NCBI GenBank assembly: GCA_001695645.1
Contig: LVZN01000020.1
Location: 1-30,622 of the forward strand
Length of the DNA stretch: 30,622 bases
Origin: Erysipelotrichaceae bacterium MTC7
GTDB taxonomy: Bacteria > Bacillota_I > Bacilli_A > Erysipelotrichales > Erysipelotrichaceae
Direction: 5' to 3'
Made by a program: the position numbers and the translations under genes. Positions 11,103-30,604 of this stretch are shown in pieces. The notes below the pieces were generated by a model. It saw only the letters and a list, made by a program, of their open reading frames with translations. It was not told the DNA's origin and did not search any database. Position 1 is the stretch's first letter. Each line of letters opens with the position of its first letter.

Positions 11103-11149
11103 CGCATAAAAACTGGACTTATCACACTTTATCAAGGTCAAAACCACTC

Positions 11150-11289: not shown

Positions 11290-11315
11290 ACCCGATTTTG
11301 AAAGGAAGTGAACTT

Positions 11316-11390: not shown

Positions 11391-11412
11391 AAAAGAAAGG
11401 ATAGGTAAAAAT

Positions 11413-11727: not shown

Positions 11728-11742
11728 AGAAAGAGAGGAAAA

Positions 11743-12129
11743 ATGATGAGATTAGCAAATGGCATTGTATTAGATAAAGACACGACTTTTGGAGAATTGA
11801 AATTCTCTGCTCTACGTCGTGAAGTGAGAATCCAAAATGAAGACGGGTCGGTTTCAGATGAAATCAAGGAACGTACCTATGACTTAAAATCCAAAGGACA
11901 AGGACGCATGATTCAAGTAAGTATTCCTGCCAGCGTGCCTTTGAAAGAGTTTGATTATAACGCACGGGTGGAACTTATCAATCCCATTGCGGACACCGTT
12001 GCTACTGCCACCTATCAAGGAGCAGATGTTGACTGGTATATCAAGGCAGACGATATTGTGCTGACAAAGGATTCTAGTTCATTCAAAGCTCAACCACAAG
12101 CAAAGAAAGAACCGACACAAGACAAATAG
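11743..12129 (+). CDS. Tn916 Orf22 (DUF961-family conjugation protein)
   Basis: 128 aa with gagagga SD, in the position of Tn916 orf22. Confidence 0.85.
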   Translation: MMRLANGIVLDKDTTFGELKFSALRREVRIQNEDGSVSDEIKERTYDLKSKGQGRMIQVSIPASVPLKEFDYNARVELINPIADTVATATYQGADVDWYIKADDIVLTKDSSSFKAQPQAKKEPTQDK

Positions 12130-12157
12130 TCGCTAGGTAGAAAGGAGACTTTTTCGC

Positions 12158-13543: not shown

Positions 13544-13720
13544 TCTTGCTGGCTGGTGTGGCAATAGCCACGCCAGCACTTAACCCCCCGTATCTAACAG
13601 GGGGGTACAAATCGACAGGAAACAGTCAAAAAAACATTAGAAAATCCTTTGGTTACAAGGGATTTACAAAATTTCAGCGTATGTCAAATGGGCTTTAAAA
13701 GTTGACATACGCCTTTTTGA
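13544..13720. promoter_or_regulatory. Tn916 oriT region (orf21-orf20 intergenic) with inverted repeats
   Basis: IR gctggtgtggc-aata-gccacgccagc (13552-13577, 1 G-T mismatch) and cccccc-N10-gggggg (13584-13605). In Tn916 the transfer origin maps between orf21 and orf20. Confidence 0.75.
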
Positions 13721-14926
13721 TTGGAGGGATTTTTACTGAATGAACAAACTTGGTTACAGCATTTAAAAGAAAAACGCTTGGCTTATGGACTATCTCAAAA
13801 CCGTTTAGCTGTTGCGACTGGTATTACAAGGCAGTATCTAAGCGATATTGAAACAGGAAAAGTCAAGCCATCAGAGGATTTACAGCAGTCCCTTTGGGAA
13901 GCTCTGGAACGCTTCAATCCCGACGCTCCCCTTGAAATGCTGTTTGATTATGTAAGAATTCGCTTTCCGACAACAGACGTACAGCAGGTGGTCGAAAACA
14001 TCTTACAACTGAAACTGTCCTATTTTCTTCATGAGGACTATGGTTTCTATTCTTATTCAGAGCATTATGCTTTAGGCGACATATTCGTCCTTTGCTCCCA
14101 TGAACTGGACAAAGGAGTTCTGGTGGAATTGAAAGGTCGTGGGTGCAGACAATTTGAAAGCTATCTTCTGGCACAACAAAGAAGCTGGTATGAGTTCTTT
14201 ATGGACGTTTTGGTGGCTGGCGGTGTGATGAAACGCCTTGACCTTGCCATTAACGATAAGACAGGGATTTTAAATATCCCTGTACTCACTGAAAAGTGCC
14301 AACAGGAAGAATGTATCTCCGTCTTCCGCAGTTTTAAAAGCTATCGCAGTGGCGAACTGGTACGCAAAGAGGAAAAGGAATGTATGGGAAACACCCTCTA
14401 TATCGGTTCATTACAAAGTGAAGTTTATTTCTGTATCTATGAAAAGGACTACGAGCAGTACAAGAAAAATGATATTCCCATTGAAGACGCAGAAGTAAAA
14501 AACCGTTTTGAGATTCGATTGAAAAATGAGCGTGCCTATTATGCAGTCCGTGATTTACTCGTCTATGACAATCCAGAGCATACCGCCTTTAAAATTATCA
14601 ATCGGTATATCCGTTTTGTAGATAAAGACGATTCCAAACCTCGTTCTGATTGGAAACTGAATGAAGAATGGGCTTGGTTTATTGGGAACAATCGTGAACG
14701 ATTAAAACTAACCACAAAACCAGAGCCTTACTCCTTCCAAAGGACGCTGAACTGGCTATCTCATCAAGTTGCCCCGACCTTAAAGGTTGCGATTAAACTT
14801 GATGAAATCAACCAGACGCAGGTTGTAAAAGACATTCTCGACCATGCGAAACTGACAGACCGACACAAGCAGATTTTGAAGCAACAGTCAGTAAAAGAAC
14901 AGGACGTGATAACAACAAAAAAATAA
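13721..14926 (+). CDS. Tn916 Orf20, Rep_trans-family relaxase with N-terminal XRE HTH
   Basis: HTH LAYGLSQNRLAVATGITRQYLSDIETGK followed by a Rep_trans-like body (MLFDYVRIRFPT...). The ORF-track start is TTG 13721, lying within ttggaggg. The exact start is uncertain, and the older annotation starts at MLFDYV. Confidence 0.85.
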   Translation: MEGFLLNEQTWLQHLKEKRLAYGLSQNRLAVATGITRQYLSDIETGKVKPSEDLQQSLWEALERFNPDAPLEMLFDYVRIRFPTTDVQQVVENILQLKLSYFLHEDYGFYSYSEHYALGDIFVLCSHELDKGVLVELKGRGCRQFESYLLAQQRSWYEFFMDVLVAGGVMKRLDLAINDKTGILNIPVLTEKCQQEECISVFRSFKSYRSGELVRKEEKECMGNTLYIGSLQSEVYFCIYEKDYEQYKKNDIPIEDAEVKNRFEIRLKNERAYYAVRDLLVYDNPEHTAFKIINRYIRFVDKDDSKPRSDWKLNEEWAWFIGNNRERLKLTTKPEPYSFQRTLNWLSHQVAPTLKVAIKLDEINQTQVVKDILDHAKLTDRHKQILKQQSVKEQDVITTKK

Positions 14927-14968
14927 CTCAAATACAAATTCATTGAATATAGAGAGGAGAACATTTTT

Positions 14969-15190
14969 ATGAATTTTGGACAAAACCTTTATAACTGGTT
15001 TCTATCAAACGCTCAATCACTGGTGCTTTTAGCAATCGTTGTGATTGGCTTGTATCTTGGCTTCAAGCGTGAGTTTAGCAAACTGATTGGCTTTTTAATT
15101 ATTGCGATTATTGCGGTTGGCTTAGTCTTCAACGCTGCTGGAGTAAAAGACATTTTACTAGAGCTATTCAATCGCATTATTGGTGCTTAA
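14969..15190 (+). CDS. Tn916 Orf19, small two-TM membrane protein
   Basis: 73 aa with two hydrophobic helices and a gaggaga SD. Confidence 0.8.
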   Translation: MNFGQNLYNWFLSNAQSLVLLAIVVIGLYLGFKREFSKLIGFLIIAIIAVGLVFNAAGVKDILLELFNRIIGA

Positions 15191-15306
15191 ATAAAACCGT
15201 TCTTTTGTGGAATATAAGTGGTTTTCTTATGTTCCGCAAAGGAATGGTACACCAAACGAAGTGCGGTAGGGATTTTTGAATCTCTACAAAGAAAGGACGT
15301 GAATAT

Positions 15307-15804
15307 ATGGACGATATGCAAGTCTATATTGCGAATTTAGGCAAATACAATGAGGGCGAATTGGTCGGTGCGTGGTTTACCTTTCCCATTGACTTTGAGG
15401 AAGTCAAAGAGAAAATCGGCTTGAATGATGAATATGAGGAATACGCCATTCATGACTACGAGTTACCCTTTACGGTTGACGAATACACTTCCATTGGCGA
15501 ACTCAATCGACTATGGGAAATGGTATCGGAATTACCCGAAGAATTACAATCGGAGCTATCTGCTCTGCTCACTCATTTTTCAAGCATTGAAGAACTAAGC
15601 GAACATCAAGAGGATATTATCATTCATTCCGATTGTGATGATATGTATGACGTGGCACGCTACTACATTGAAGAAACGGGTGCTTTAGGCGAAGTACCAG
15701 CTAGTCTTCAAAACTATATTGATTATCAAGCCTATGGTCGGGATTTAGACCTTTCAGGAACGTTTATCTCAACCAATCATGGGATTTTTGAAATCGTCTA
15801 TTAA
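15307..15804 (+). CDS. ardA: ArdA antirestriction protein (Tn916 Orf18)
   Basis: 165 aa, strongly acidic, with an N-terminus MDDMQVYIANLGKYNEGELVGAWFTFPIDFEE that is characteristic of ArdA DNA mimics. Confidence 0.95.
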   Translation: MDDMQVYIANLGKYNEGELVGAWFTFPIDFEEVKEKIGLNDEYEEYAIHDYELPFTVDEYTSIGELNRLWEMVSELPEELQSELSALLTHFSSIEELSEHQEDIIIHSDCDDMYDVARYYIEETGALGEVPASLQNYIDYQAYGRDLDLSGTFISTNHGIFEIVY

Positions 15805-15892
15805 ATCTGTCGGTACATTACTACTGGCAGATTTTCTATTTTACGGGGTGGCTCAATCAGCTACCCCTATTTTTTATGAAAGGATTGATTAC

Positions 15893-16285
15893 ATGAAGAA
15901 AATACGAAGCTATACCAGTATCTGGTCTGTGGAAAAGGTACTGTATTCTATCAATGATTTTAGACTTCCGTTTCCCATAACCTTTACGCAAATGACATGG
16001 TTTGTCGTGTCACTCTTTGCAGTGATGATACTTGGCAACTTGCCCCCTCTTTCCATGATAGAGGGAGCATTTCTCAAATACTTTGGGATTCCTGTGGCTT
16101 TCACATGGTTTATGTCTACAAAAACTTTTGATGGTAAAAAGCCTTATGGATTTTTGAAGTCTGTCATTGCTTATGCACTGCGACCAAAGCTGACCTATGC
16201 AGGAAAAAAAGTAACGCTTGGCAGAAACCAGCCACAAGAAGCCATTACAGCAGTTAGGAGTGAATTTTATGGCATATCCAATTAA
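15893..16285 (+). CDS. Tn916 Orf17, TcpE-like membrane protein (VirB3-like)
   Basis: ATG 15893 is preceded by an aaagga SD, giving MKKIRSYTSIWSVEKVLY... with two TM helices. The ORF-track start at 15779 overlaps ardA and a hairpin/T-run at 15845-15875. Confidence 0.8.
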   Translation: MKKIRSYTSIWSVEKVLYSINDFRLPFPITFTQMTWFVVSLFAVMILGNLPPLSMIEGAFLKYFGIPVAFTWFMSTKTFDGKKPYGFLKSVIAYALRPKLTYAGKKVTLGRNQPQEAITAVRSEFYGISN

Positions 16286-18716
16286 ATACATTGAAAACAA
16301 TCTCGTCTGGAATAAAGACGGGGAATGTTATGCTTACTATGAGCTTGTTCCTTACAATTACTCATTTCTAAGTCCAGAACAGAAAATACAAGTGCATGAT
16401 TCTTTCAGACAGCTTATCGCACAAAATCGTGATGGCAAAATTCATGCTTTACAAATCAGTACAGAATCCAGCATACGTTCTGCACAAGAGCGTTCCAAAA
16501 ATGAAGTCACTGGCAAGCTCAAAGCGGTTGCCTATGACAAAATCGACCAACAGACAGACGCTTTAATATCCATGATTGGCGAAAATCAAGTGAACTACCG
16601 TTTCTTTATCGGCTTTAAGTTGCTTCTCAACGATCAGGAGTTTTCTATGAAAAGTCTTACCGTTGAAGCAAAAAATGCTTTGTCTGATTTTGTCTATGAT
16701 GTGAACCATAAGCTGATGGGCGATTTTGTTAGTATGAGTAATGATGAAATCCTGCGTTTTCAGAAGATGGAAAAGCTCTTAGAAAATAAAATCTCTCGTC
16801 GTTTCAAAATCCGCAGGTTAGATAAGGACGACTTCGGCTATCTGATTGAACACCTTTACGGACAGACAGGCACTGCCTATGAAGAGTATGAGTACCATCT
16901 ATCAAAGAAAAAGCTGGATAATGAAACGCTGATTAAATACTATGACTTGATTAAGCCTACTCGCTGTTTGGTGGAAGAAAAACAGCGATATTTGAAAATC
17001 CAGCAGGAAGATGAAACCGTCTATGTAGCTTACTTTACCATTAACAGCATTGTCGGAGAACTGGACTTCCCGTCCTCTGAAATCTTCTACTACCAGCAAC
17101 AGCAATTTACATTCCCGATTGATACGTCAATGAATGTGGAAATTGTAGCGAATCGTAAAGCCCTATCTACTGTCCGCAATAAAAAGAAAGAACTGAAAGA
17201 CTTGGATAACCACGCTTGGCAAAGTGATAATGAAACCAGCTCCAATGTGGCGGAAGCTCTGGAAAGTGTGAATGAGCTGGAAACCAATTTAGACCAAAGC
17301 AAGGAATCTATGTACAAGCTGTCTTATGTGGTAAGGGTATCAGCAAATGATCTTGACGAACTCAAACGTCGTTGTAATGAAGTGAAAGATTTTTATGACG
17401 ATTTAAGCGTAAAACTGGTACGACCATTTGGGGATATGCTCGGCTTACATGAAGAATTTTTACCTGCCAGCAAGCGTTATATGAATGATTATATTCAATA
17501 CGTGACCTCTGATTTCCTCGCTGGTTTAGGTTTTGGTGCTACTCAAATGCTGGGGGAAAATGAGGGGATTTATGTTGGCTACAGCTTAGATACTGGACGC
17601 AATGTCTATCTGAAACCTGCTCTTGCCAGTCAAGGGGTTAAGGGTTCAGTAACCAATGCGTTAGCGTCGGCTTTTGTTGGTTCGCTGGGTGGTGGTAAAT
17701 CCTTTGCGAATAACCTTATCGTCTATTATGCGGTGCTTTATGGGGCACAAGCAGTGATTGTAGACCCAAAAGCAGAACGTGGCAGATGGAAAGAAACCTT
17801 GCCAGAGATTTCCCATGAAATCAATATCGTCACTCTGACTTCTGATGAGAAAAACAAAGGCTTACTTGACCCTTATGTGATTATGAAAAATCCCAAAGAT
17901 TCTGAATCACTGGCTATTGATATTCTGACATTCCTTACGGGGATTTCCTCTCGTGATGGGGAACGCTTCCCAATCCTTAGAAAAGCCATTCGTGCAGTAA
18001 CCAATAGTGAAGTACGAGGGTTGATGAAAGTGATTGAGGAATTACGGGTTGAGAATACGCCACTAAGTACCAGTATAGCCGACCATATCGAAAGTTTTAC
18101 AGACTATGACTTTGCACATTTATTATTCAGTAATGGTTATGTGGAGCAGTCTATCAGCTTAGAAAAACAACTGAACATTATACAGGTTGCGGACTTGGTA
18201 CTTCCCGACAAGGAAACTTCCTTTGAGGAATATACCACTATGGAGCTTTTATCCGTTGCTATGCTGATTGTCATTAGTACCTTTGCTTTAGACTTTATCC
18301 ATACAGACCGAAGCATTTTCAAGATTGTAGATTTAGACGAAGCATGGAGCTTTTTACAGGTAGCACAAGGAAAAACACTATCTATGAAGCTGGTTCGGGC
18401 TGGTCGTGCTATGAACGCTGGGGTATATTTCGTGACCCAAAATACAGACGACCTCTTAGATGAAAAACTGAAAAATAACCTCGGCTTAAAATTTGCATTT
18501 CGTTCCACTGACCTTAACGAGATTAAAAAGACCTTAGCCTTTTTTGGTGTAGACCCAGAGGACGAAAACAATCAGAAGCGATTGCGTGATTTGGAAAACG
18601 GGCAATGCCTTATCAGTGATTTATATGGTCGTGTCGGTGTGATACAGTTCCACCCTGTATTTGAAGAACTGCTCCATGCCTTTGATACCAGACCACCTGT
18701 GCGAAAAGAGGTGTAA
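16269..18716 (+). CDS. Tn916 Orf16, VirB4-like conjugative ATPase
   Basis: ATG 16269 follows an aggag SD and gives 815 aa. Walker A GSLGGGKS, Walker B KIVDLDEAW. Confidence 0.95.
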   Translation: MAYPIKYIENNLVWNKDGECYAYYELVPYNYSFLSPEQKIQVHDSFRQLIAQNRDGKIHALQISTESSIRSAQERSKNEVTGKLKAVAYDKIDQQTDALISMIGENQVNYRFFIGFKLLLNDQEFSMKSLTVEAKNALSDFVYDVNHKLMGDFVSMSNDEILRFQKMEKLLENKISRRFKIRRLDKDDFGYLIEHLYGQTGTAYEEYEYHLSKKKLDNETLIKYYDLIKPTRCLVEEKQRYLKIQQEDETVYVAYFTINSIVGELDFPSSEIFYYQQQQFTFPIDTSMNVEIVANRKALSTVRNKKKELKDLDNHAWQSDNETSSNVAEALESVNELETNLDQSKESMYKLSYVVRVSANDLDELKRRCNEVKDFYDDLSVKLVRPFGDMLGLHEEFLPASKRYMNDYIQYVTSDFLAGLGFGATQMLGENEGIYVGYSLDTGRNVYLKPALASQGVKGSVTNALASAFVGSLGGGKSFANNLIVYYAVLYGAQAVIVDPKAERGRWKETLPEISHEINIVTLTSDEKNKGLLDPYVIMKNPKDSESLAIDILTFLTGISSRDGERFPILRKAIRAVTNSEVRGLMKVIEELRVENTPLSTSIADHIESFTDYDFAHLLFSNGYVEQSISLEKQLNIIQVADLVLPDKETSFEEYTTMELLSVAMLIVISTFALDFIHTDRSIFKIVDLDEAWSFLQVAQGKTLSMKLVRAGRAMNAGVYFVTQNTDDLLDEKLKNNLGLKFAFRSTDLNEIKKTLAFFGVDPEDENNQKRLRDLENGQCLISDLYGRVGVIQFHPVFEELLHAFDTRPPVRKEV

Positions 18717-18718
18717 AT

Positions 18719-20896
18719 GTGAAACCATCAATAGTAAACAGAATAAAATCAAACTGGACGCTGAAACGTCTAGGTAAAGTGGCAATGACAGTGGCTTTCA
18801 CACTTGTGATTGCCATTTTTCTTTTAGCCATGCTGGGAACGGTGGTTCAAGCTGCGGGCTTGGTAGATGATACGGTCAATGTGGCAAATGAATACAGCCG
18901 ATACCCACTTGAAAACTATCAACTGGATTTTTATGTGGATAATAGCTGGGGCTGGCTTCCGTGGAACTGGTCGGACGGGATTGGAAAACAGGTCATGTAT
19001 GGACTATATGCCATTACCAATTTTATTTGGACAATCAGTTTGTATGTTTCCAATGCGACAGGTTACTTAGTACAGGAAGCCTATTCCTTAGACTTCATTT
19101 CCGCTACAGCAGATTCCATTGGTAAGAATATGCAGACCTTAGCTGGTGTGAGTGCAAACGGATTTTCAACAGAGGGTTTCTATGTTGGATTCCTCTTACT
19201 CTTGATTTTGGTTCTTGGGGTTTATGTTGCCTATACGGGACTGATAAAGAGAGAAACCACAAAGGCAATTCATGCCATTATGAATTTTGTGCTGGTGTTT
19301 ATCCTATCGGCTTCCTTTATTGCCTACGCTCCCGACTACATTAAAAAAATCAATGACTTTTCATCAGACATCAGTAATGCCAGTTTATCACTTGGCACGA
19401 AGATTGTCATGCCCCATTCCGATAGTCAAGGCAAGGACAGCGTGGACTTAATCAGAGATAGCCTGTTTTCCATACAGGTTCAGCAACCGTGGCTACTGCT
19501 TCAATACAACAGTTCAGACATTGAAAGTATCGGTATTGACCGTGTGGAAAGCCTGCTCTCCACCAGCCCAGATTCCAACAATGGCGAAGACAGAGAAAAA
19601 ATTGTTGCGGAAGAAATTGAAGACAGAAGCAATACCAATCTAACCATTACAAAGACCATTAACCGTTTAGGTACAGTCTTCTTCCTATTTGTCTTCAATA
19701 TTGGGATTTCCATATTTGTATTCCTATTAACAGGAATCATGATTTTCTCGCAGGTACTTTTTATCATCTATGCTATGTTTCTGCCTGTGAGCTTTATTTT
19801 AAGCATGATTCCATCATTTGATGGTATGTCAAAACGAGCCATAACAAAGCTCTTTAATACCATTTTGACACGAGCTGGAATCACATTGATTATTACGACA
19901 GCATTTAGTATTTCAACCATGCTCTATACCTTATCGGCTGGTTATCCGTTCTTTTTGATTGCTTTTCTACAGATTGTGACCTTTGCAGGAATCTACTTCA
20001 AGCTGGGCGATTTAATGAGTATGTTTTCTCTACAGAGTAACGATTCTCAAAGTGTGGGAAGTCGTGTGATGAGAAAACCTCGTATGCTTATGCACGCTCA
20101 CATGCACCGTCTACAGCGGAAACTTGGACGTTCCATGACTACTCTAGGGGCTGGGTCTGCCATTGTTACAGGTAAAAAAGGACAGTCGGGTTCGGGGAGT
20201 TCTGCAAGGACACAAGCAGATCACTCCCGACCAGACGGAAAGGAAAAATCAACACTTGGAAAACGTATCGGTCAAACCATCGGTACAGTAGCTGATACCA
20301 AAGACAGAATGGTAGACACTGCTAGTGGTTTGAAAGAACAGGTTAAAGATTTGCCGACCAATGCAAGATATGCAGTATATCAAGGAAAATCCAAAGTAAA
20401 AGAGAATGTCCGTGATTTAACCAGTAGTATTTCTCAAACCAAAGCGGACAGAGCCAGTGGACGCAAGGAACAGCAGGAACAAAGGCGAAAAACCATTGCG
20501 AAGCGTCGCTCTGAAATGGAACAGGTCAAACAGAAAAAACAGCCTGCTTCTTCTGTTCATGAAAGACCGACTACAAGACAAGAACAATATCATGATGAAC
20601 AGACCTCAAAACAGTCTAATATTCAGACTTCATATAAGGAATCTCAACAAGCCAAACAAGAGCGTCCAGCAGTTAAGTCCGATTTTTCAAGTCCAAAAGT
20701 GGAACGCCAAGGCAATACCGTTCAAGAAAAAACCGTTCAAAAGCCAGCAACTTCAACCACTACAGCAGATAGAACTTCACAACGTCCAATCACAAAAGAA
20801 CGTCCGTCTACTGTTCAAAGAGTACCACTACAAAATACAAGAAGTAGACCACCAATCAAAACCGCCACCATTAAGAAAGTCGGTAAGAAACCATGA
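18719..20896 (+). CDS. Tn916 Orf15, polytopic T4SS channel protein (VirB6/TcpH-like) with long disordered C-terminal tail
   Basis: GTG start after an aagaggtg SD. It has multiple TM helices up to about residue 450, then about 265 residues of K/Q/S/T/R/P-rich low-complexity sequence. Confidence 0.9.
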   Translation: MKPSIVNRIKSNWTLKRLGKVAMTVAFTLVIAIFLLAMLGTVVQAAGLVDDTVNVANEYSRYPLENYQLDFYVDNSWGWLPWNWSDGIGKQVMYGLYAITNFIWTISLYVSNATGYLVQEAYSLDFISATADSIGKNMQTLAGVSANGFSTEGFYVGFLLLLILVLGVYVAYTGLIKRETTKAIHAIMNFVLVFILSASFIAYAPDYIKKINDFSSDISNASLSLGTKIVMPHSDSQGKDSVDLIRDSLFSIQVQQPWLLLQYNSSDIESIGIDRVESLLSTSPDSNNGEDREKIVAEEIEDRSNTNLTITKTINRLGTVFFLFVFNIGISIFVFLLTGIMIFSQVLFIIYAMFLPVSFILSMIPSFDGMSKRAITKLFNTILTRAGITLIITTAFSISTMLYTLSAGYPFFLIAFLQIVTFAGIYFKLGDLMSMFSLQSNDSQSVGSRVMRKPRMLMHAHMHRLQRKLGRSMTTLGAGSAIVTGKKGQSGSGSSARTQADHSRPDGKEKSTLGKRIGQTIGTVADTKDRMVDTASGLKEQVKDLPTNARYAVYQGKSKVKENVRDLTSSISQTKADRASGRKEQQEQRRKTIAKRRSEMEQVKQKKQPASSVHERPTTRQEQYHDEQTSKQSNIQTSYKESQQAKQERPAVKSDFSSPKVERQGNTVQEKTVQKPATSTTTADRTSQRPITKERPSTVQRVPLQNTRSRPPIKTATIKKVGKKP

Positions 20897-21894
20897 AGTT
20901 GAAAACTTTAGTGATTGGTGGTTCTGGATTATTCTTGATGGTCTTCTCACTGCTTCTGTTTGTTGCCATTTTATTTTCAGATGAACAGGACAGCGGAATT
21001 TCCAATATTCATTATGGAGGTGTGAATGTTTCCGCAGAAGTGCTGGCTCATAAGCCTATGGTAGAAAAATATGCCAAAGAATATGGCGTTGAAGAATATG
21101 TCAACATACTTCTTGCGATTATACAGGTGGAATCGGGCGGTACTGCGGAAGATGTTATGCAGTCCTCGGAATCCCTCGGTCTTCCACCTAATTCATTGAG
21201 TACAGAAGAATCCATTAAGCAAGGTGTGAAGTATTTCAGTGAATTATTAGCCAGTAGCGAAAGGCTCAGTGTAGATTTAGAATCGGTTATCCAGTCCTAC
21301 AATTATGGTGGTGGTTTCTTAGGGTATGTGGCTAATCGTGGAAATAAATATACCTTTGAACTGGCTCAAAGTTTCTCAAAAGAGTATTCAGGTGGCGAAA
21401 AAGTGTCTTACCCCAATCCCATAGCCATACCTATCAATGGGGGCTGGCGATACAACTATGGCAATATGTTTTATGTGCAACTGGTAACGCAGTATCTTGT
21501 CACAACAGAGTTTGATGATGATACGGTACAAGCCATCATGGACGAAGCACTGAAATATGAGGGCTGGCGATACGTTTACGGTGGAGCTTCCCCGACTACT
21601 TCTTTTGATTGTAGCGGACTGACACAATGGACGTATGGAAAAGCTGGAATTAACTTACCACGAACCGCACAACAGCAATATGATGTGACCCAGCATATCC
21701 CACTATCGGAAGCACAAGCTGGCGATTTGGTTTTCTTTCATTCTACCTATAACGCTGGCTCTTATATTACTCATGTTGGGATATACCTTGGCAATAACCG
21801 TATGTTTCATGCAGGCGACCCAATCGGTTATGCCGACTTAACAAGCCCCTACTGGCAACAGCATTTAGTGGGAGCAGGACGAATCAAACAATGA
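20893..21894 (+). CDS. Tn916 Orf14, bifunctional cell-wall hydrolase (lysozyme-like plus NlpC/P60)
   Basis: N-terminal anchor, IQVESGG (transglycosylase catalytic Glu block), C-terminal FDCSGLTQWTY (catalytic Cys) and THVGIYLG (His). 333 aa. Confidence 0.95.
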   Translation: MKLKTLVIGGSGLFLMVFSLLLFVAILFSDEQDSGISNIHYGGVNVSAEVLAHKPMVEKYAKEYGVEEYVNILLAIIQVESGGTAEDVMQSSESLGLPPNSLSTEESIKQGVKYFSELLASSERLSVDLESVIQSYNYGGGFLGYVANRGNKYTFELAQSFSKEYSGGEKVSYPNPIAIPINGGWRYNYGNMFYVQLVTQYLVTTEFDDDTVQAIMDEALKYEGWRYVYGGASPTTSFDCSGLTQWTYGKAGINLPRTAQQQYDVTQHIPLSEAQAGDLVFFHSTYNAGSYITHVGIYLGNNRMFHAGDPIGYADLTSPYWQQHLVGAGRIKQ

Positions 21895-22823
21895 GAAAGG
21901 AAGATTTAATGATGAAATTTAGAAAAAATCAGAATAAAGAAAAACAGATACCAAAGGAAAAGAAACCTCGTGTCTATAAGGTCAATCCTCATAAAAAGGT
22001 TGTGATTGCCTTGTGGGTACTTTTAGGGCTTAGTTTCAGCTTTGCGATATTCAAGCACTTTACAGCTATAGATACTCATACTATTCACGAAACAACTATC
22101 ATAGAAAAGGAATACGTTGATACTCATCATGTAGAAAATTTTGTAGAGAACTTTGCGAAAGTCTACTATTCATGGGAGCAATCCGATAAGTCCATTGATA
22201 ATCGAATGGAAAGTCTAAAAGGCTATCTGACAGATGAACTTCAAGCTCTCAATGTTGATACAGTACGCAAAGATATTCCTGTATCGTCTTCTGTAAGAGG
22301 ATTTCAGATATGGACGGTAGAGCCAACTGGCGACAATGAGTTTAATGTAACCTACAGTGTAGACCAGCTCATTACAGAGGGAGAAAATACAAAGACCGTC
22401 CACTCTGCTTATATAGTGAGTGTCTATGTAGATGGTTCTGGAAATATGGTACTGGTTAAGAATCCGACCATTACCAACATACCTAAGAAATCAAGTTATA
22501 AACCAAAAGCCATTGAAAGTGAGGGGACGGTTGATTCCATTACAACCAATGAAATCAATGAGTTTTTAACGACGTTCTTCAAGCTCTATCCTACAGCGAC
22601 AGCCAGTGAACTTTCCTACTATGTGAATGACGGGATATTAAAACCAATCGGAAAAGAGTACATCTTTCAAGAACTGGTAAATCCTATTCACAATCGTAAG
22701 GATAATCAAGTCACGGTATCGCTGACAGTGGAGTATATCGACCAGCAGACCAAAGCAACGCAGGTATCTCAATTTGATTTGGTACTTGAAAAGAACGGGA
22801 GTAATTGGAAGATTGTAAAATAA
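21891..22823 (+). CDS. Tn916 Orf13, anchored conjugation protein (TcpC/VirB8-like)
   Basis: 310 aa with a single TM (VVIALWVLLGLSFSFAIF) and a start overlapping the orf14 stop. Confidence 0.85.
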   Translation: MRKEDLMMKFRKNQNKEKQIPKEKKPRVYKVNPHKKVVIALWVLLGLSFSFAIFKHFTAIDTHTIHETTIIEKEYVDTHHVENFVENFAKVYYSWEQSDKSIDNRMESLKGYLTDELQALNVDTVRKDIPVSSSVRGFQIWTVEPTGDNEFNVTYSVDQLITEGENTKTVHSAYIVSVYVDGSGNMVLVKNPTITNIPKKSSYKPKAIESEGTVDSITTNEINEFLTTFFKLYPTATASELSYYVNDGILKPIGKEYIFQELVNPIHNRKDNQVTVSLTVEYIDQQTKATQVSQFDLVLEKNGSNWKIVK

Positions 22824-23097
22824 CAAATATTGGTACATGATTACAGATACTTTGTAATCATGTACTCTTTTTGATAAAAAATTGGAGATTCCTTTACAAA
22901 TATGCTCTTACGTGCTATTATTTAAGTGACTATTTAAAAGGAGTTAATAAATATGCGGCAAGGTATTCTTAAATAAACTGTCAATTTGATAGCGGGAACA
23001 AATAATTAGATGTCCTTTTTTAGGAGGGCTTAGTTTTTTGTACCCAGTTTAAGAATACCTTTATCATGTGATTCTAAAGTATCCAGAGAATATCTGT

Positions 23098-23184
23098 ATG
23101 CTTTGTATACCTATGGTTATGCATAAAAATCCCAGTGATAAAAGTATTTATCACTGGGATTTTTATGCCCTTTTGGGTTTTTGA
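23098..23184 (+). CDS. orf12, 28-aa tet(M) leader peptide
   Basis: ATG 23098 translates to MLCIPMVMHKNPSDKSIYHWDFYALLGF-stop. It ends directly before the tet(M) SD and contains the attenuator hairpin. Confidence 0.85.
   Translation: MLCIPMVMHKNPSDKSIYHWDFYALLGF
23125..23164 (+). terminator. tet(M) transcriptional attenuator hairpin
   Basis: Perfect 18-bp stem aaaaatcccagtgataaa / tttatcactgggattttt with a 4-nt loop, running into a T-rich tract inside orf12. Confidence 0.9.
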
Positions 23185-23199
23185 ATGGAGGAAAAACAC

Positions 23200-25119
23200 A
23201 TGAAAATTATTAATATTGGAGTTTTAGCTCATGTTGATGCAGGAAAAACTACCTTAACAGAAAGCTTATTATATAACAGTGGAGCGATTACAGAATTAGG
23301 AAGCGTGGACAAAGGTACAACGAGGACGGATAATACGCTTTTAGAACGTCAGAGAGGAATTACAATTCAGACAGGAATAACCTCTTTTCAGTGGGAAAAT
23401 ACGAAGGTGAACATCATAGACACGCCAGGACATATGGATTTCTTAGCAGAAGTATATCGTTCATTATCAGTTTTAGATGGGGCAATTCTACTGATTTCTG
23501 CAAAAGATGGCGTACAAGCACAAACTCGTATATTATTTCATGCACTTAGGAAAATGGGGATTCCCACAATCTTTTTTATCAATAAGATTGACCAAAATGG
23601 AATTGATTTATCAACGGTTTATCAGGATATTAAAGAGAAACTTTCTGCCGAAATTGTAATCAAACAGAAGGTAGAACTGTATCCTAATATGTGTGTGACG
23701 AACTTTACCGAATCTGAACAATGGGATACGGTAATAGAGGGAAACGATGACCTTTTAGAGAAATATATGTCCGGTAAATCATTAGAAGCATTGGAACTCG
23801 AACAAGAGGAAAGCATAAGATTTCATAATTGTTCCCTGTTCCCTGTTTATCACGGAAGTGCAAAAAACAATATAGGGATTGATAACCTTATAGAAGTGAT
23901 TACGAATAAATTTTATTCATCAACACATCGAGGTCCGTCTGAACTTTGCGGAAATGTTTTCAAAATTGAATATACAAAAAAAAGACAACGTCTTGCATAT
24001 ATACGCCTTTATAGTGGAGTACTACATTTACGAGATTCGGTTAGAGTATCAGAAAAAGAAAAAATAAAAGTTACAGAAATGTATACTTCAATAAATGGTG
24101 AATTATGTAAGATTGATAGAGCTTATTCTGGAGAAATTGTTATTTTGCAAAATGAGTTTTTGAAGTTAAATAGTGTTCTTGGAGATACAAAACTATTGCC
24201 ACAGAGAAAAAAGATTGAAAATCCGCACCCTCTACTACAAACAACTGTTGAACCGAGTAAACCTGAACAGAGAGAAATGTTGCTTGATGCCCTTTTGGAA
24301 ATCTCAGATAGTGATCCGCTTCTACGATATTACGTGGATTCTACGACACATGAAATTATACTTTCTTTCTTAGGGAAAGTACAAATGGAAGTGATTAGTG
24401 CACTGTTGCAAGAAAAGTATCATGTGGAGATAGAACTAAAAGAGCCTACAGTCATTTATATGGAGAGACCGTTAAAAAATGCAGAATATACCATTCACAT
24501 CGAAGTGCCGCCAAATCCTTTCTGGGCTTCCATTGGTTTATCTGTATCACCGCTTCCGTTGGGAAGTGGAATGCAGTATGAGAGCTCGGTTTCTCTTGGA
24601 TACTTAAATCAATCATTTCAAAATGCAGTTATGGAAGGGATACGCTATGGTTGCGAACAAGGATTATATGGTTGGAATGTGACGGATTGTAAAATCTGTT
24701 TTAAGTATGGCTTATACTATAGCCCTGTTAGTACCCCAGCAGATTTTCGGATGCTTGCTCCTATTGTATTGGAACAAGTCTTAAAAAAAGCTGGAACAGA
24801 ATTGTTAGAGCCATATCTTAGTTTTAAAATTTATGCGCCACAGGAATATCTTTCACGAGCATACAACGATGCTCCTAAATATTGTGCGAACATCGTAGAC
24901 ACTCAATTGAAAAATAATGAGGTCATTCTTAGTGGAGAAATCCCTGCTCGGTGTATTCAAGAATATCGTAGTGATTTAACTTTCTTTACAAATGGACGTA
25001 GTGTTTGTTTAACAGAGTTAAAAGGGTACCATGTTACTACCGGTGAACCTGTTTGCCAGCCCCGTCGTCCAAATAGTCGGATAGATAAAGTACGATATAT
25101 GTTCAATAAAATAACTTAG
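23200..25119 (+). CDS. tet(M): Tet(M) ribosomal protection protein (tetracycline resistance)
   Basis: [18 protein letters not shown] (G1), DTPGH (G3), NKID (G4), and an EF-G-like body ending ...[13 protein letters not shown]. 639 aa from ATG 23200, which follows a ggagg SD. Confidence 0.98.
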
Positions 25120-25216
25120 TGTATTTTATGTTGTTATATAAATATGGTTTCTTGTTAAATAAGATGAAATATTTTTTAATAAAGATTTGAATTAAAGTGT
25201 AAAGGAGGAGATAGTT

Positions 25217-25405
25217 ATTATAAACTACAAGTGGATATTGTGTCCTGTATGTGGAAATAAAACACGATTAAAGATAAGGGAAGATACTGAATTAAAAAAA
25301 TTCCCCCTCTATTGTCCGAAATGCAGACAAGAAAATTTAATTGAAATAAAGCAGTTCAAAGTAACTGTGATTACAGAGCCAGACGCAAAGACGCAGAGCC
25401 GATAA
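25217..25405 (+). CDS. Tn916 Orf6, small Cys-rich (CxxC...CxxC) KTR-type zinc-ribbon protein
   Basis: The frame reads (I)INYKWILCPVCGNKTRLKIREDTELKKFPLYCPKCRQENLIEIKQFKVTVITEPDAKTQSR-stop. aaaggagg SD is at 25201-25208. There is no ATG, so the likely start is non-canonical (ATT 25217 or ATA 25220) or TTG 25238. Confidence 0.6.
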   Translation: MINYKWILCPVCGNKTRLKIREDTELKKFPLYCPKCRQENLIEIKQFKVTVITEPDAKTQSR

Positions 25406-25439
25406 AATGAGATTAATACAATCTCATTTTATCGGCTCT
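25395..25439. terminator. Perfect 19-bp hairpin between convergent orf6 and orf9
   Basis: agagccgataaaatgagat - taataca - atctcattttatcggctct. Confidence 0.8.
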
Positions 25440-25464
25440 TTCCGTTATGTATGGATTCTTTTAA

Positions 25465-25818
25465 TTAGTCTTCGATGTTTCTTGCTTCGTTGATACCGCT
25501 GGCTAAAGATTCCATTAAGGATAGTTCTTTGTCTGTAAAGCTATCCATGTATTTCTCTATCTGTAATCGTCGGGTGCTTTTTACCAAGTTATTAGCAGGT
25601 AAGAAAAATTCATCAACGGAAACATGAAGTAACGATACAAGGTCATAAAGAACTTGTATGCTGGGGTGTTGCCCTTTATTTTCAATATTAGTTAAGTACC
25701 GTGGGTCAATTTCAATCAATGCTCCCACTTGTTCACGAGTTAAACCTCGTTTCAATCGAGCTTCTTTAATGGCTAAACCAAAGGCTCTAAAATCATATTT
25801 ATCTTCTTTTTTACGCAT
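25465..25818 (-). CDS. Tn916 Orf9, XRE-family HTH repressor
   Basis: 117 aa with [35 protein letters not shown], on the opposite strand to tet(M). Confidence 0.9.
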
Positions 25819-26313
25819 AGTAGACCACCTCTATACATTTTATTGTTCCTACTGAATTAAAAACAGGTATAGAAAAACGTGTTATATGGTTTATAGGTTT
25901 ATATTTAATAAAAAGCACTACTAAACGCCAATAAAAAAAACCGTTATATGGTAGTGCTATTTACGCTGTTAAAATATTGTATATTACTTCCAAATGGCGG
26001 TTTGTTGGAGGTCAACGTCGCCATGAAGTACATCATATACAATAAATTTCCTTACATTGGGTTCTTGTCAAAAAAAGTCGTCTATCTGCAATAGATAAGT
26101 ACGTCCACCAATGTGGTTTTATAAATCATATAGATAGAATAACAGAAGCATGTAAACAGAGAAATAAATCTGTTTATATGCTTTTTTGGCTATTCAGAAC
26201 TTTTTTACAAAGTTTATTTATCAGTAATGCAACAAATCCCCCTTTCACATTGGGACTAAGAGTGAAAGGAGATAAACGAGCAAGGCTCACTTCCTTTCCT
26301 AGACAGAAAGGGG

Positions 26314-26745
26314 GTGAGAAACATGAAACCATCTTCTTTTCAGACCACAATAGAAAATCAGTTTGACTATATCTGTAAACGTGCTATGGAAGACGAGCGA
26401 AAGAATTATATGCTTTATCTTTCAAGGATTGCAAAGCGTGAGGTGTCCTTTTCGGATGTTGGCGATTATCTTGTTAGCCAGTTTGCGACAACAGATAACT
26501 ATTCAACTGACTTTCAGATTTTTACACTCAATGGGTTATCAGTAGGCGTTGAAAATGATTTGTTGAGTGAAGCATTACGTGAGTTGCCAGACAAGAAACG
26601 TGAAATTCTACTGCTGTTTTACTTTATGGACATGAGCGATTCAGAAATTGCAGACCTGTTGAAATTGAACCGTTCTACTGTCTATCGGCATAGAACCAGT
26701 GGACTAGCCTTAATTAAAAAGTTTATGGAGGAATTTGAAGAATGA
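26314..26745 (+). CDS. Tn916 Orf7, sigma-70 region-4-like transcriptional activator
   Basis: 143 aa with LPDKKREILLLFYFMDMSDSEIADLLKLNRSTVYRHRTSGLALIKK (sigma70_r4 HTH) and a ggggtgag SD. Confidence 0.9.
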   Translation: MRNMKPSSFQTTIENQFDYICKRAMEDERKNYMLYLSRIAKREVSFSDVGDYLVSQFATTDNYSTDFQIFTLNGLSVGVENDLLSEALRELPDKKREILLLFYFMDMSDSEIADLLKLNRSTVYRHRTSGLALIKKFMEEFEE

Positions 26746-26972
26746 AAACACAATATCCTATGATTCCCTTTCCTCTCATTGTAAAGGCAACAGATGGCGA
26801 TACCGAAGCGATTAACCAGATTCTACATCATTACAGAGGGTACATAACGAAGCGTTCCCTACGACTTATGAAAGATGAATATGGCAATCAAAGTATGGTC
26901 GTTGATGAAGTCTTACGTGGAAGAATGGAAACCAGACTGATTACAAAGATTTTGTCATTTGAAATTAAGTAA
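26742..26972 (+). CDS. Tn916 Orf8, small helix-turn-helix regulator
   Basis: 76 aa with a start overlapping the orf7 stop (ATGA). Confidence 0.85.
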   Translation: MKTQYPMIPFPLIVKATDGDTEAINQILHHYRGYITKRSLRLMKDEYGNQSMVVDEVLRGRMETRLITKILSFEIK

Positions 26973-27197
26973 TATCCTCTCTCCTTTCGTGGAAGCGTGC
27001 TAAACCATTCCACGCTTCCCGAACAGGGAGGTTTGTTATTCCACCAAAGCATATTGAGCTTTCAATGTGTTTTGATAGGCTAACGAGCCATTGTTCTTTG
27101 AAAACTGAATAAAAGTAATCGAATACGTTTCGATAAGAAAAGAGCCAACGGAACTAACCGCCATGACCTATCTTATAAAGATAGCGAGCGATTCATG

Positions 27198-27449
27198 TTA
27201 GTGATCCGAGAAGCAATCTTTAGCAGGATTGCCTGCAACGACATTCTTATCGTGATAATGATACTCCCATACAGTCAATAGTCCGAGCGTGATAAAACCG
27301 TCGCAGGCAATGAGTATGGCTACATGAGAACCATGCAGGGGTGGAACTCCCGTGAGCTTTGCTAAAGCTGTTCGATTGCTGGTAAAACAACTTTTATGAA
27401 ATCCAAATAAGTGATTTGGAAAGGAGGATTTTATGAAGCAGACTGACAT
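27198..27449 (-). CDS. Tn916 Orf5 (function unknown)
   Basis: 83-aa minus-strand ORF at the canonical orf5 position. Its start overlaps the xis start region. Confidence 0.6.
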
Positions 27450-27636
27450 TCCTATTTGGGAACGTTATACCCTAACCATTGAAGAAGCGTCAAAATATTT
27501 TCGTATTGGCGAAAACAAGCTACGACGCTTGGCAGAGGAAAATAAAAATGCAAATTGGCTGATTATGAATGGCAATCGTATTCAGATTAAACGAAAACAA
27601 TTTGAAAAAATTATAGATACATTGGACGCAATCTAG
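27433..27636 (+). CDS. xis: Tn916 excisionase Xis
   Basis: 67 aa, [36 protein letters not shown]..., with a ggaaaggagga SD. Confidence 0.95.
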
Positions 27637-27717
27637 CGTCGCCAAAGGGTCTTGTATATGATAAAATAGTATTAAGTCGTATCAAGGCTCTTTCCATAAA
27701 GGAAAGGAGCAAATGCC

Positions 27718-28935
27718 ATGTCAGAAAAAAGACGTGACAATAAAGGTCGAATCTTAAAGACTGGAGAGAGCCAACGAAAAGACGGAAGATACTTATACAA
27801 ATATATAGATTCATTTGGAGAACCGCAATTTGTTTACTCGTGGAAACTTGTGGCTACAGACCGAGTACCAGCAGGAAAGCGTGATTGTATCTCACTTAGA
27901 GAGAAAATCGCAGAGTTACAGAAAGACATTCATGATGGTATTGATGTTGTAGGAAAGAAAATGACACTCTGCCAGCTTTACGCAAAACAGAACGCTCAAA
28001 GACCAAAGGTTAGAAAAAACACTGAAACTGGACGCAAATATCTTATGGATATTTTGAAGAAAGACAAGTTAGGTGTAAGAAGTATTGACAGTATTAAGCC
28101 ATCAGACGCTAAAGAATGGGCTATTAGAATGAGTGAAAATGGTTATGCTTATCAAACCATCAATAACTACAAACGTTCTTTAAAGGCTTCATTCTATATT
28201 GCTATACAAGATGATTGTGTTCGGAAGAATCCATTTGACTTTCAACTGAAAGCAGTTCTTGATGATGATACTGTCCCTAAGACCGTACTAACAGAAGAAC
28301 AGGAAGAAAAACTGTTAGCCTTTGCAAAAGCTGATAAAACCTACAGCAAAAATTATGATGAAATTCTGATACTCTTAAAAACAGGTCTTCGTATTTCAGA
28401 GTTTGGTGGTTTGACACTTCCAGATTTAGATTTTGAGAATCGTCTTGTCAATATAGACCATCAGCTATTGAGAGATACTGAAATTGGGTACTACATTGAA
28501 ACACCAAAGACCAAAAGTGGCGAACGTCAAGTTCCTATGGTTGAAGAAGCCTATCAAGCATTTAAGCGAGTGTTAGCGAATCGAAAGAATGATAAGCGTG
28601 TTGAGATTGATGGATATAGTGATTTCCTCTTTCTTAATAGAAAGAACTATCCAAAAGTGGCAAGTGATTACAACGGCATGATGAAAGGTCTTGTTAAGAA
28701 ATACAATAAGTATAACGAGGATAAATTGCCACACATCACTCCACATAGTTTGCGACATACATTCTGTACCAACTATGCAAATGCAGGAATGAATCCAAAG
28801 GCATTACAGTACATTATGGGACATGCTAATATAGCCATGACGCTGAACTATTACGCACATGCAACATTCGATTCTGCAATGGCAGAAATGAAACGCTTGA
28901 ATAAAGAGAAGCAACAGGAGCGTCTTGTTGCTTAG
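27718..28935 (+). CDS. int: Tn916 tyrosine integrase Int
   Basis: 405 aa with an N-terminal arm-binding domain (MSEKRRDNKGRILKTGESQRKDGRYLYKY). Catalytic residues are in GLRISEF, HSLRHTF and GHANIAMTLNYYAH. Confidence 0.97.
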   Translation: MSEKRRDNKGRILKTGESQRKDGRYLYKYIDSFGEPQFVYSWKLVATDRVPAGKRDCISLREKIAELQKDIHDGIDVVGKKMTLCQLYAKQNAQRPKVRKNTETGRKYLMDILKKDKLGVRSIDSIKPSDAKEWAIRMSENGYAYQTINNYKRSLKASFYIAIQDDCVRKNPFDFQLKAVLDDDTVPKTVLTEEQEEKLLAFAKADKTYSKNYDEILILLKTGLRISEFGGLTLPDLDFENRLVNIDHQLLRDTEIGYYIETPKTKSGERQVPMVEEAYQAFKRVLANRKNDKRVEIDGYSDFLFLNRKNYPKVASDYNGMMKGLVKKYNKYNEDKLPHITPHSLRHTFCTNYANAGMNPKALQYIMGHANIAMTLNYYAHATFDSAMAEMKRLNKEKQQERLVA

Positions 28936-28946
28936 TAGTACAAATG

Positions 28947-28969
28947 AATTTACTACTTATTTACCACTT
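28947..28969. promoter_or_regulatory. Int arm-type (DR-2) repeats at the int end
   Basis: aatttactactt followed by atttaccactt, related to the 11150-11171 repeats. Confidence 0.75.
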
Positions 28970-29083
28970 CTGACAGCTAAGACATGAGGAAATATGCAAA
29001 GAAACGTGAAGTATCTTCCTACAGTAAAAATACTCGAAAGCACATAGAATAAGGCTTTACGAGCATTTAAGAAAATATAAAAA

Positions 29084-29109
29084 GATAATTAGAAATTTAT
29101 ACTTTGTTT
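29084..29109. repeat. Tn916 right terminal imperfect inverted repeat
   Basis: gataattagaaatttatactttgttt. Its reverse complement matches 11077-11102 at 20/26. Confidence 0.9.
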
Positions 29110-29297
29110 AGTATAAAAAATGCACAAAGTAACATCTTGTGAAAAAAATGCTGTAAACATGCATTATTACAGTCCAAAATACACTTTTTTCTAATGCAAG
29201 ATAATATATTGCTAAGCTTGCATTAAAAAAACTTTGTAATTAAGTGATGAATGGTATAAAATTATGTATAATTAAATAGAAAAAAGGGGAATGAAAA

Positions 29298-29801
29298 ATG
29301 GATAAAGAATATGTATTAGATAAGAACGAGGTTGTAAATCTATTAAAAAGTGTTCATGTAAGCTTGTATGACAAAGCCATTTCACCAATTAAGTTACAAA
29401 AAGGATTATACTTTTTATTTGCTTTTTGGGGTGGTAGAATTCGCAAAGCAAAAAAAACAGAATTAGATCTTGTTGAAAAATATACGGAGTATTTATTTAA
29501 TCCCGCTTTTGAAGCGTGGTCATACGGACCTGTAGATAGAGAAGTATATAGCAAAAATAAACATGGGGCATTAAATGTTTACGATGTTGATAAAGCTGTT
29601 GAATATTTAGAACGTCAAGATGATTTCGTTAAGTCGTTTCTTGAAGAACTAATTCCACAAATTTTTAATTCTGGGGATTTTGGGTTAGTGAACTTAAGTC
29701 ATAAAGATAATGCGTGGATTGATAATTATGATGCAAGAGCGCTATATAATGATACGCAAATCCCATCAGAAGATATTATCGTGGAATATGCGAACAAATA
29801 A
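29298..29801 (+). CDS. DUF4065 / Panacea-domain protein (PanA/SocA/GepA-like putative antitoxin)
   Basis: 167 aa. Hallmark blocks are SPIKLQKGLYFLFAFWGG and FEAWSYGPVDREVY (consensus KLQKLLYF ... FEAW.YGPV...vY). aagggga SD is present. Confidence 0.8.
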   Translation: MDKEYVLDKNEVVNLLKSVHVSLYDKAISPIKLQKGLYFLFAFWGGRIRKAKKTELDLVEKYTEYLFNPAFEAWSYGPVDREVYSKNKHGALNVYDVDKAVEYLERQDDFVKSFLEELIPQIFNSGDFGLVNLSHKDNAWIDNYDARALYNDTQIPSEDIIVEYANK

Positions 29802-30462
29802 ACAAAAAAAGAAATCGAATATTGTATTAGTAAGCGCTCAAAATATGAGTAATGAAAAGAAAAAAAAGGAACTCGCTGAGAAATTTGTTAAATCTGCTGA
29901 AGTAAGTGATGAAAATCCATTTAGTGGGATGAACAAAGTGAAAGAAAAATTGACAGATCAAAAAAGTTTGGTGCCAAACAGTCTAAACAAAATTAAAGTG
30001 AAGTTTAGAAAAATAACAAGCGAATCTTTCCCTGATGTATATTTTACAAATAAGTTGAAACCAACTACTCAGGATGATGAGTTGTTTAAAAGTGATATAT
30101 TACGAAAATTAATCAGGTTAAAAGACCAACTAGTGAATAGTGAGGAAATACCTTGGGACGTTGAGGAAAGAGAACGTCTGATGAATAAACGTACAAAAAA
30201 GGAACTTACAAGTCCAAAAGTAAATAGAAATAAACAATTATTTACTAAAATTGGATTAGGACAAAGAGTTGATGATATTGATAAAGCACCTATTAAAAGT
30301 CAATATGGCAGTAAACATAATTCAGTTAGAGTTTATTATATTTTCGATGGAGATATTGTGGACATAGTTTTAATGGATCCGCACCACTTGGTAGCAGACA
30401 AAGAATATAGAAAAAAATACAATATGTACAAGCATTGTAAAAAATGCATTGGAAACTTATAA
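29788..30462 (+). CDS. Unassigned basic protein, candidate toxin partner of the Panacea gene
   Basis: ATG 29788 overlaps the upstream stop by 14 nt and gives 224 aa. The protein is very Lys-rich with no TM segment. The C-terminal VRVYYIFDGDIVDIVLMDPHH resembles the terminal beta-hairpin and His of RelE/YoeB/ParE-fold toxins. The tail KHCKKC, together with HH, may bind metal. The start is uncertain (29710, 29788 or 29845 are possible). Confidence 0.55.
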   Translation: MRTNKQKKKSNIVLVSAQNMSNEKKKKELAEKFVKSAEVSDENPFSGMNKVKEKLTDQKSLVPNSLNKIKVKFRKITSESFPDVYFTNKLKPTTQDDELFKSDILRKLIRLKDQLVNSEEIPWDVEERERLMNKRTKKELTSPKVNRNKQLFTKIGLGQRVDDIDKAPIKSQYGSKHNSVRVYYIFDGDIVDIVLMDPHHLVADKEYRKKYNMYKHCKKCIGNL

Positions 30463-30468
30463 AAACGG

Positions 30469-30504
30469 AACCTACGTAACCAGGATGGGATGTCGTAGGT
30501 TTTT
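30469..30504 (+). terminator. Hairpin plus T-run after the two-gene module
   Basis: aacctacg ... cgtaggtt with a 17-nt loop, followed by tttt. Confidence 0.45.
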
Positions 30505-30558
30505 ACTTTGCATGGATTTACCTTGTTTTACTTTTGTATGTGATGGGGAGTGTAAAAT

Positions 30559-30604
30559 AAACTGTGTAAGTAGAGAGCGTACGGCTCTGCTTCACAGTTT
30601 TTTT
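30559..30604 (+). terminator. Long imperfect hairpin plus T7
   Basis: aaactgtgtaagtagagagc - gtac - ggctctgcttcacagttt, followed by ttttttt. Confidence 0.65.

Follow-up and report, generated by a model that had tools for sequence, protein, structure and literature searches.

The window, which is a complete contig (30,622 bp) from Erysipelotrichaceae bacterium MTC7, carries on its forward strand a pair of overlapping open reading frames (ORFs) that probably forms a two-gene PanAT-type toxin–antitoxin or abortive-infection module. ORF1 (panA, 29298–29801, 167 residues; public gene call A4S06_10830) encodes a stand-alone Panacea (DUF4065) protein that is predicted to act as antitoxin or sensor. 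ORF2 (panT-like, 29788–30462, with its ATG at 29788, its stop codon at 30460–30462 and 224 residues; public gene call A4S06_10835) starts within ORF1, overlapping its 3' end by 14 nt, and encodes a basic partner (isoelectric point, pI, 9.7) that has no transmembrane segment and is assigned by profile comparison to the family of Lactococcus phage bIL312 Orf25, which is PanT cluster T16. Comparison of the recovered loci establishes, at the level of sequence, that the pair is conserved, translationally coupled, co-diverging and carried on mobile elements. The two ORFs, their overlap and the DUF4065 blocks of ORF1, as described in a first-pass annotation of the same DNA, are borne out by the coordinates, the public gene calls and the match to PF13274.

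Conservation of the pair and its place in PanT cluster T16

ORF1 carries the two blocks KLQKGLYF and FEAWSYGPV..VY, both of which are invariant in the subfamily alignment. Its match to the Pfam family SocA_Panacea (PF13274; E 1e-4, 23.6 bits) narrowly misses the gathering score of 25.7, and the same family is matched by all 28 aligned members of the PanA subfamily (best E 6.3e-10). The Panacea/DUF4065 domain by which one partner of a PanAT pair is recognised is therefore present in ORF1, for which about 50 homologues were found at 35–48% identity. The protein has no additional N-terminal domain and is acidic (pI 5.0). It also resembles, weakly, the NCBIfam model of SocA (E 6e-10), the founding Panacea protein and part of the Caulobacter type VI toxin–antitoxin system SocAB; classification as a SocA equivalog (NF047745) was rejected, as the cut-off is 190 bits and ORF1 scores 39. 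The two systems differ in that ORF2 is placed in no family by the Pfam, NCBIfam and PADLOC libraries, and a ClpXP-adaptor mechanism is not inferable for the MTC7 pair.

Searches that started from ORF2 itself recovered few relatives. A word-index search returned only the self match, and three further proteins when the family alignment was used; an exhaustive phmmer search of 1.84 billion representatives gave four distant matches (E 3e-6 to 5e-4), and tblastn against 50,697 phage records gave none. The partner family was instead recovered from the neighbours of PanA homologues, after which a hidden Markov model (HMM) was iterated over all ORFs of the fetched loci, and it was by way of PanA that the phage homologues were obtained. 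In five independent contexts a gene of 179–205 codons without a Pfam match overlaps or abuts a PanA homologue, and its product aligns with ORF2. Scanning IMG/VR with the PanA alignment added 42 loci, nearly all of which have the partner directly downstream.

After deduplication, 42 distinct PanA-subfamily genes remained, and the gene-neighbourhood check suggested in the first-pass annotation came out in favour of a linked pair: a full partner lies directly downstream in 36 cases, a frameshifted one in a single case, the contig ends in two and there is no partner in three. Eight other annotated pairs are spaced between an overlap of 35 nt and a gap of 2 nt. The relation is reciprocal, as all intact partners found sit directly downstream of PanA. 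Scans with partner motifs yielded only four more loci, and in three of them (L012–L014) the gene directly upstream is PanA. The remaining one, L015, which is the sole locus from the metagenome scan, holds the remnant of a partner truncated at its N-terminus and lacks PanA. Scans of 185,579 GTDB representative genomes and of IMG/VR with back-translated partner patterns, which were too narrow, confirmed nothing. Given these narrow patterns and the single divergent sequence used for confirmation, absence of T16 from the GTDB representative set is not to be concluded; RefSeq genomes with T16 members are listed by Kurata et al., which makes the miss a limit of the scan rather than evidence of absence.

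The distance matrices of PanA and partner are strongly correlated (Mantel r 0.873, permutation maximum 0.26), which indicates that the pair is a stable, co-inherited unit within which the partner diverges faster than PanA. Decay of the pair was also seen. PanA is retained and the partner deleted in Lactobacillus phage phiAT3 ORF19 (L059, 2477–3400) and in L046, and PanA is retained beside a frameshifted partner in L021. A metagenomic locus (L005, 759–4516, and L006, 737–1763) holds a PanA-subfamily gene without a T16 partner, in a gene run with two more Panacea-domain genes (140 and 159 residues) and several ORFs of 206–248 residues that have no Pfam match; possibly several Panacea modules, each with a different kind of partner, are arrayed there.

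The pair resides mostly in prophages, phage satellites and genomic islands of Firmicutes. It lies between endolysin and integrase in Brochothrix phage BL3 (gp24/gp25), forms the final two genes of Streptococcus satellite phage Javan462 and corresponds to orf24/orf25 of Lactococcus phage bIL312. Three further loci (L007, L008 and L010) adjoin integrases, and others follow lysis cassettes or precede terminase genes, positions that are typical accessory-gene slots.

The bIL312 pair provides the link to a published prediction. Dataset S1 of Kurata et al. 2022 in PNAS (PMC8832971) lists NP_076824.1/NP_076825.1 as a predicted PanAT pair of cluster T16 (pT17), in antitoxin–toxin order and spaced by −35 nt. 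The cluster has twelve pairs altogether, the remaining eleven coming from Bacilli and one Mannheimia, and includes pairs of Staphylococcus simiae, Streptococcus equi, Carnobacterium mobile and Lactobacillus kisonensis (PMC8832971). An HMM of 28 family members, from which both ORF2 and bIL312 Orf25 had been excluded, scores Orf25 at 53.5 bits and ORF2 at 58.5 bits, against at most 4.5 bits for 200 shuffles, so that ORF2 is not a chance ORF. By this profile comparison ORF2 belongs, at some distance, to the catalogued T16 family and is not a new kind; the pair thus belongs to a kind that had already been predicted. Of what the first-pass annotation proposed, the PanA-type pair with the antitoxin-like gene first is therefore supported, while its novelty does not hold, bIL312 Orf25 of the same partner family having been listed before (PMC8832971).

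Like the listed T16 pairs, most of which have gaps of −38 to +3 nt (−14 here), the MTC7 pair has a stand-alone ('noNTD') PanA first and a partner without a CDD domain, and ORF2 shares the motifs F-x-N, R and D-P-x-H with bIL312 Orf25. It differs in that ORF2 is only ∼20–27% identical to other members and has a longer K/E-rich N-terminal tail, and in its host family, Erysipelotrichaceae, which is missing from the published list of 12. With BL3 gp24/gp25 and Javan462 included, the family is extended here to about 37 distinct pairs. It reaches far beyond the 12 published entries, and BL3, bIL312 and the Javan satellites offer tractable carriers. In the literature no later PanAT work on the T16 family was found, and none of the T16 accessions searched for was found in the NetFlax supplements, whose files are possibly incomplete.

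PanAT systems show most clearly how a single antitoxin domain can serve dozens of toxins that are unrelated to one another, and about half of the predicted PanT clusters, T16 among these, are without a known fold or activity. With the validated systems (Kurata 2022; Ernits 2023), whose toxins comprise toxSAS, Doc, MazF-like ribonuclease, nucleotide-cyclase-like and membrane toxins, the MTC7 pair has in common a Panacea antitoxin beside an unrelated partner, a mobile, phage-linked spread and a stand-alone Panacea protein of the type reported to neutralise directly. In contrast to those systems, the T16 partner matches none of their toxin folds, has no transmembrane segment and is a toxin by prediction.

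Conserved core of the T16 partner

Residue conservation was derived from a non-redundant alignment of 29 partner sequences, in which F86, N88, D197 and H200 (ORF2 numbering) are invariant and S78 and R147 are conserved in at least 90% of members. The first-pass annotation had described roughly 170 residues of ORF2 as a K/E-rich region. This description stands for the first ∼64 residues, which are of low complexity (29788–29979, forward strand), poorly conserved and predicted to be disordered, with a predicted local distance difference test (pLDDT) score below 50; it fails beyond them, where residues 65–224 form the conserved core. Within this core, and likewise on the forward strand, S78 is encoded at 30019–30021, the invariant F86-x-N88 motif at 30043–30051 and R147, which lies in the predicted second helix, at 30226–30228. 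The segment at 30322–30396 encodes a β-hairpin (residues 179–196) followed by D197-P-H-H200-L-V-A203, with D197 at 30376–30378 and H200 at 30385–30387, and is the region of similarity to ribosomal protein eL15 discussed below. R181 is Arg in most members, and several have Q, H, T or C in its place. Most partners are basic (pI 8.6–9.7), five are acidic, and none has a transmembrane segment. Such a compact set of invariant residues is well suited to mutagenesis.

An alternative ORF2 start at M20 (29845) would shorten the tail; an overlapping start is seen in eight of nine annotated pairs. The K/E-rich tail also yields spurious weak matches, to Pfam 'Lips', to PADLOC PDC-M35B and to coiled-coil GCN4 fusions in the PDB, and the single weak PADLOC match of ORF2 (PDC-M35B, E 0.003) lies in this low-complexity part. 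A weak full-length PDB match to 9r2r 'M7r1' (E 0.003) was rejected as a K/E-rich compositional match, although it includes core sequence up to just before the DxxH motif.

No library placed the partner in a family. Pfam searches at E up to 10 found no consistent family for the 29 members, NCBIfam likewise gave none for ORF2, and among the PHROGs only the unannotated phrog_28810 was matched, by 4 of the 29. The Pfam, NCBIfam and PADLOC results agree in this respect with the first-pass annotation, which could not place the downstream protein in a known toxin family.

The one reproducible remote similarity of T16 is to a ribosomal-protein motif. When a profile of the C-terminal part was searched against the PDB, 26 of 28 weak matches fell on the core motif of ribosomal protein eL15 (L15e, PF00827), with a best E of 0.066 that is borderline after correction for database size. 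The eL15 core, LRVLNSY...FEVILIDPFHKAI, aligned with the partner consensus lRif...leiiLiDpyHLv, and direct comparison by hhalign with verified eL15 gave 47–75% probability, P values of 2e-4 to 2.5e-5 and a score of 32, against 9–11 for reversed eL15, at most 16.5 for 100 column shuffles and at most 15.8 for 24 unrelated proteins. The likeness consists of the hairpin and I-L-I-D-P-x-H, set against LRVLNSY...(F/Y)EVIL(I/V)DPxHxAI in eL15. The hairpin and (I/V)LIDPxH of T16 members are near-identical to the most conserved eL15 motif (EVILIDPFH). The remainder of the 200-residue eL15 is unaligned, and the two differ in distribution: eL15 belongs to archaea and eukaryotes, T16 to bacteria and phages. 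In Pfam scans no partner member matches PF00827, and there is no alignment across the eL15 domain. One T16 member in Dataset S1 bears the HHpred remark '50S RIBOSOMAL SUBUNIT (51.5%)' (PMC8832971), and the motif described here presumably underlies that remark. The literature search found nothing on L15e-like toxins, nor on bacterial or phage proteins with eL15-like elements.

Proposed function and alternative readings

In the favoured PanAT-type mechanism, the T16 protein would inhibit growth from within the cell and PanA, using the Panacea domain itself, would bind it directly and so neutralise it, until a trigger, for example phage infection or loss of the element, frees the toxin. A module of this kind may serve phage defence or stabilisation of the element. 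Direct neutralisation through the Panacea domain has been reported for stand-alone PanAs (PMC10440598). Fourteen of 25 predicted PanTs tested in E. coli were toxic, nine of these were neutralised by their own PanA, and cloning failed for three others, perhaps on account of toxicity (PMC8832971); these proportions favour, indirectly, a toxic T16 partner. So does the pattern of decay, in small numbers and again indirectly, because PanA outlasts loss or frameshift of the partner (phiAT3, L046 and L021) and a partner without PanA occurs only as the truncated L015 remnant. The charge complementarity of an acidic PanA and a basic partner, together with the lack of transmembrane segments, is also consistent with such a module.

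The effector might act on RNA or the ribosome and so block translation, which we consider a possible but doubtful target assignment. It is suggested by the invariant polar set (S78, N88, R147, D197 and H200) together with the eL15-like hairpin-DPxH element, the eL15 core motif being one that we take to contact ribosomal RNA. The eL15 match may reflect remote homology of the hairpin element or convergence and is a lead toward RNA or the ribosome, not a result. Were T16 to prove toxic, this would give a concrete hypothesis of an RNA or ribosome target. A bolder version, in which T16 would be a new fold of phage and satellite toxins that borrows or mimics the eL15 hairpin-DPxH element, appears improbable.

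Several observations tell against a PanAT-type module built around a T16 toxin. All twelve published T16 entries are marked as having no domain and as 'notest', and 8 of the 25 tested PanTs were not toxic in E. coli (PMC8832971). Membership of ORF2 in T16 is reached via intermediates, its score against an HMM of the bIL312/BL3/Javan subclade being 13.4 bits compared with 5.2 for shuffles, and as most loci were retrieved via PanA, few independent retrievals stand behind the rule that the partner follows PanA. No match to PADLOC-DB v2.0 was found at E up to 1e-3 for any of the 29 partners or 28 PanA members. Two AlphaFold models, built from eight-sequence alignments, concur in the order β-α-β-α-β-β-β-α at low confidence (pLDDT 60 and 65; predicted template modelling score 0.53 and 0.63), and Foldseek searches with each model against the PDB, and a further one against BFVD, gave no significant match, so no fold is assigned. 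The eL15 match is limited to 22–33 residues and a forced alignment extends nothing. Finally, the window ends 160 bp past the pair, and its right-hand context lies beyond the contig.

That the pair is not a toxin–antitoxin system at all is a real if somewhat unlikely alternative. The T16 protein would then be one of those accessory proteins of phages that are not toxic, such as a regulator, a factor that binds RNA or a component of anti-defence or superinfection exclusion, and its Panacea partner would be a sensor or chaperone and not an antidote. The 'notest' entries and the eight non-toxic PanTs fit this alternative, as does the suggestion of the NetFlax authors that Panacea is perhaps mainly a sensor (PMC10440598), and the prophage accessory slots that hold the pair also house many non-toxic genes. 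It is countered by the type II architecture, with a tight overlap, the antitoxin-like gene first and an acidic/basic pair, and by strict co-inheritance and the loss of the partner where PanA is kept, although neither line proves toxicity.

It is unlikely that ORF2 is instead an enlarged ribonuclease or gyrase poison of the RelE/YoeB/ParE/HigB fold, in which the C-terminal strand-turn-strand and His would be catalytic, as the first-pass annotation had suggested for the C-terminus. The predicted order of elements in T16, with a C-terminal hairpin followed by His, is compatible with that of such small basic type II toxins (RelBE, HigBA, YefM-YoeB and ParDE); the AlphaFold order, β-α-(β)-α-β-β-β-α, would fit a RelE-like sandwich with insertions, and the Arg of the penultimate strand, together with the His past the last strand, recalls the active sites of the RelE family. 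The best three PDB matches of the second model in Foldseek are HigB1/HigB2 (E 0.6–1.6, template modelling (TM) score at most 0.28), with 7awk, 8a0x, 9w3a and 4ls4 lower, and for the first model the toxin of a Salmonella toxin–antitoxin complex, 7vd7, ranks eighth. All of these RelE-type matches are non-significant (E 0.6–5, probability at most 0.13, TM score at most 0.34, root-mean-square deviation 7–13 Å) and come from weak models, however, and sequence profiles do not support them. Pfam RelE, ParE, YoeB, HigB and YafQ match none of the 29 members at E up to 10, the profile searches of the PDB returned no RelE/ParE-type chain, and hhalign against Pfam-verified RelE, YoeB, YafQ, ParE, HigB and MqsR gave 0.07–0.7% probability. 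The candidate Arg would be R181, one of the variable positions, and the ∼160-residue core with its invariant F-x-N, a motif absent from RelE-type toxins, has no RelE counterpart, those toxins being 85–120 residues long.

A metal-dependent enzyme or zinc-ribbon protein, as hinted earlier from the HH...HCKKC tail, is very improbable: ORF2 does hold H199, H200, H216, C217 and C220 inside 22 residues, but among the 29 members only H200 is invariant, H199 being Y, N, F or H, H216 and C217 not conserved, and the C220 position often but not always Cys, with several tails lacking any Cys.

Locus layout and neighbouring elements

For the MTC7 genome, the PanAT-type pair is an ordinary accessory module next to a Tn916 insertion. 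Identity to Tn916 is 99.7–99.9% over ∼11060–29125 and stops at about 29121–29128; the pair therefore adjoins this integrative and conjugative element (ICE) and is not within it, lying outside ∼170 bp past the right end of the copy, in agreement with the adjacency that had been noted earlier. The Tn916-family ICE is complete, with xis at 27433–27636, int at 27718–28935 and a tet(M)-sized ORF at 23185–25119, and both of its ends match copies carried by plasmids of Enterococcus, Clostridium and Lactobacillus at 99.6–99.9% identity. Its insertion point is a very AT-rich spacer directly upstream of the panA promoter region. The G+C content is 30–31% for the pair and 24% for the spacer upstream of panA, compared with 36% for the host flank.

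Between the Tn916 end and the promoter candidate lies an inverted repeat of 15 nt with 93% complementarity and a 16-nt spacer (TTTTTCTAATGCAAG / CTTGCATTAAAAAAA, 29186–29231), which may serve as an operator or, as a hairpin, shield the pair from Tn916 read-through. The σ70-like promoter candidate TTGTAA-17-TAAAAT (29234–29262, forward strand) matches at 9 of 12 positions and is no commoner than in shuffles. It is followed on the same strand by a Shine–Dalgarno-like element read from the sequence, AAGGGGAA (29284–29291), with 8 nt separating its GGGG core from the ATG of panA.

Downstream of ORF2, a scan for consensus terminators found none, and the two T-run hairpins came from folding, as the terminator hairpins of the earlier description had led one to expect. 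Hairpin 1 (30467–30503, forward strand; −14.1 kcal/mol, z −2.2) has its T-run partly in the stem and is a weak terminator candidate, whereas hairpin 2 (30555–30604, forward strand; −20 kcal/mol, z −4.3) ends in seven T and is likely to be the intrinsic terminator of the operon.

Elsewhere on the contig, an AbiEii nucleotidyltransferase toxin gene (5061–5810; PF08843, E 1e-37) is preceded, in the position of the AbiEi antitoxin, by an ORF of 198 residues without a Pfam match (4375–4971). By domain content and gene order, the region 4375–5810 would be a second toxin–antitoxin or abortive-infection module on this contig.

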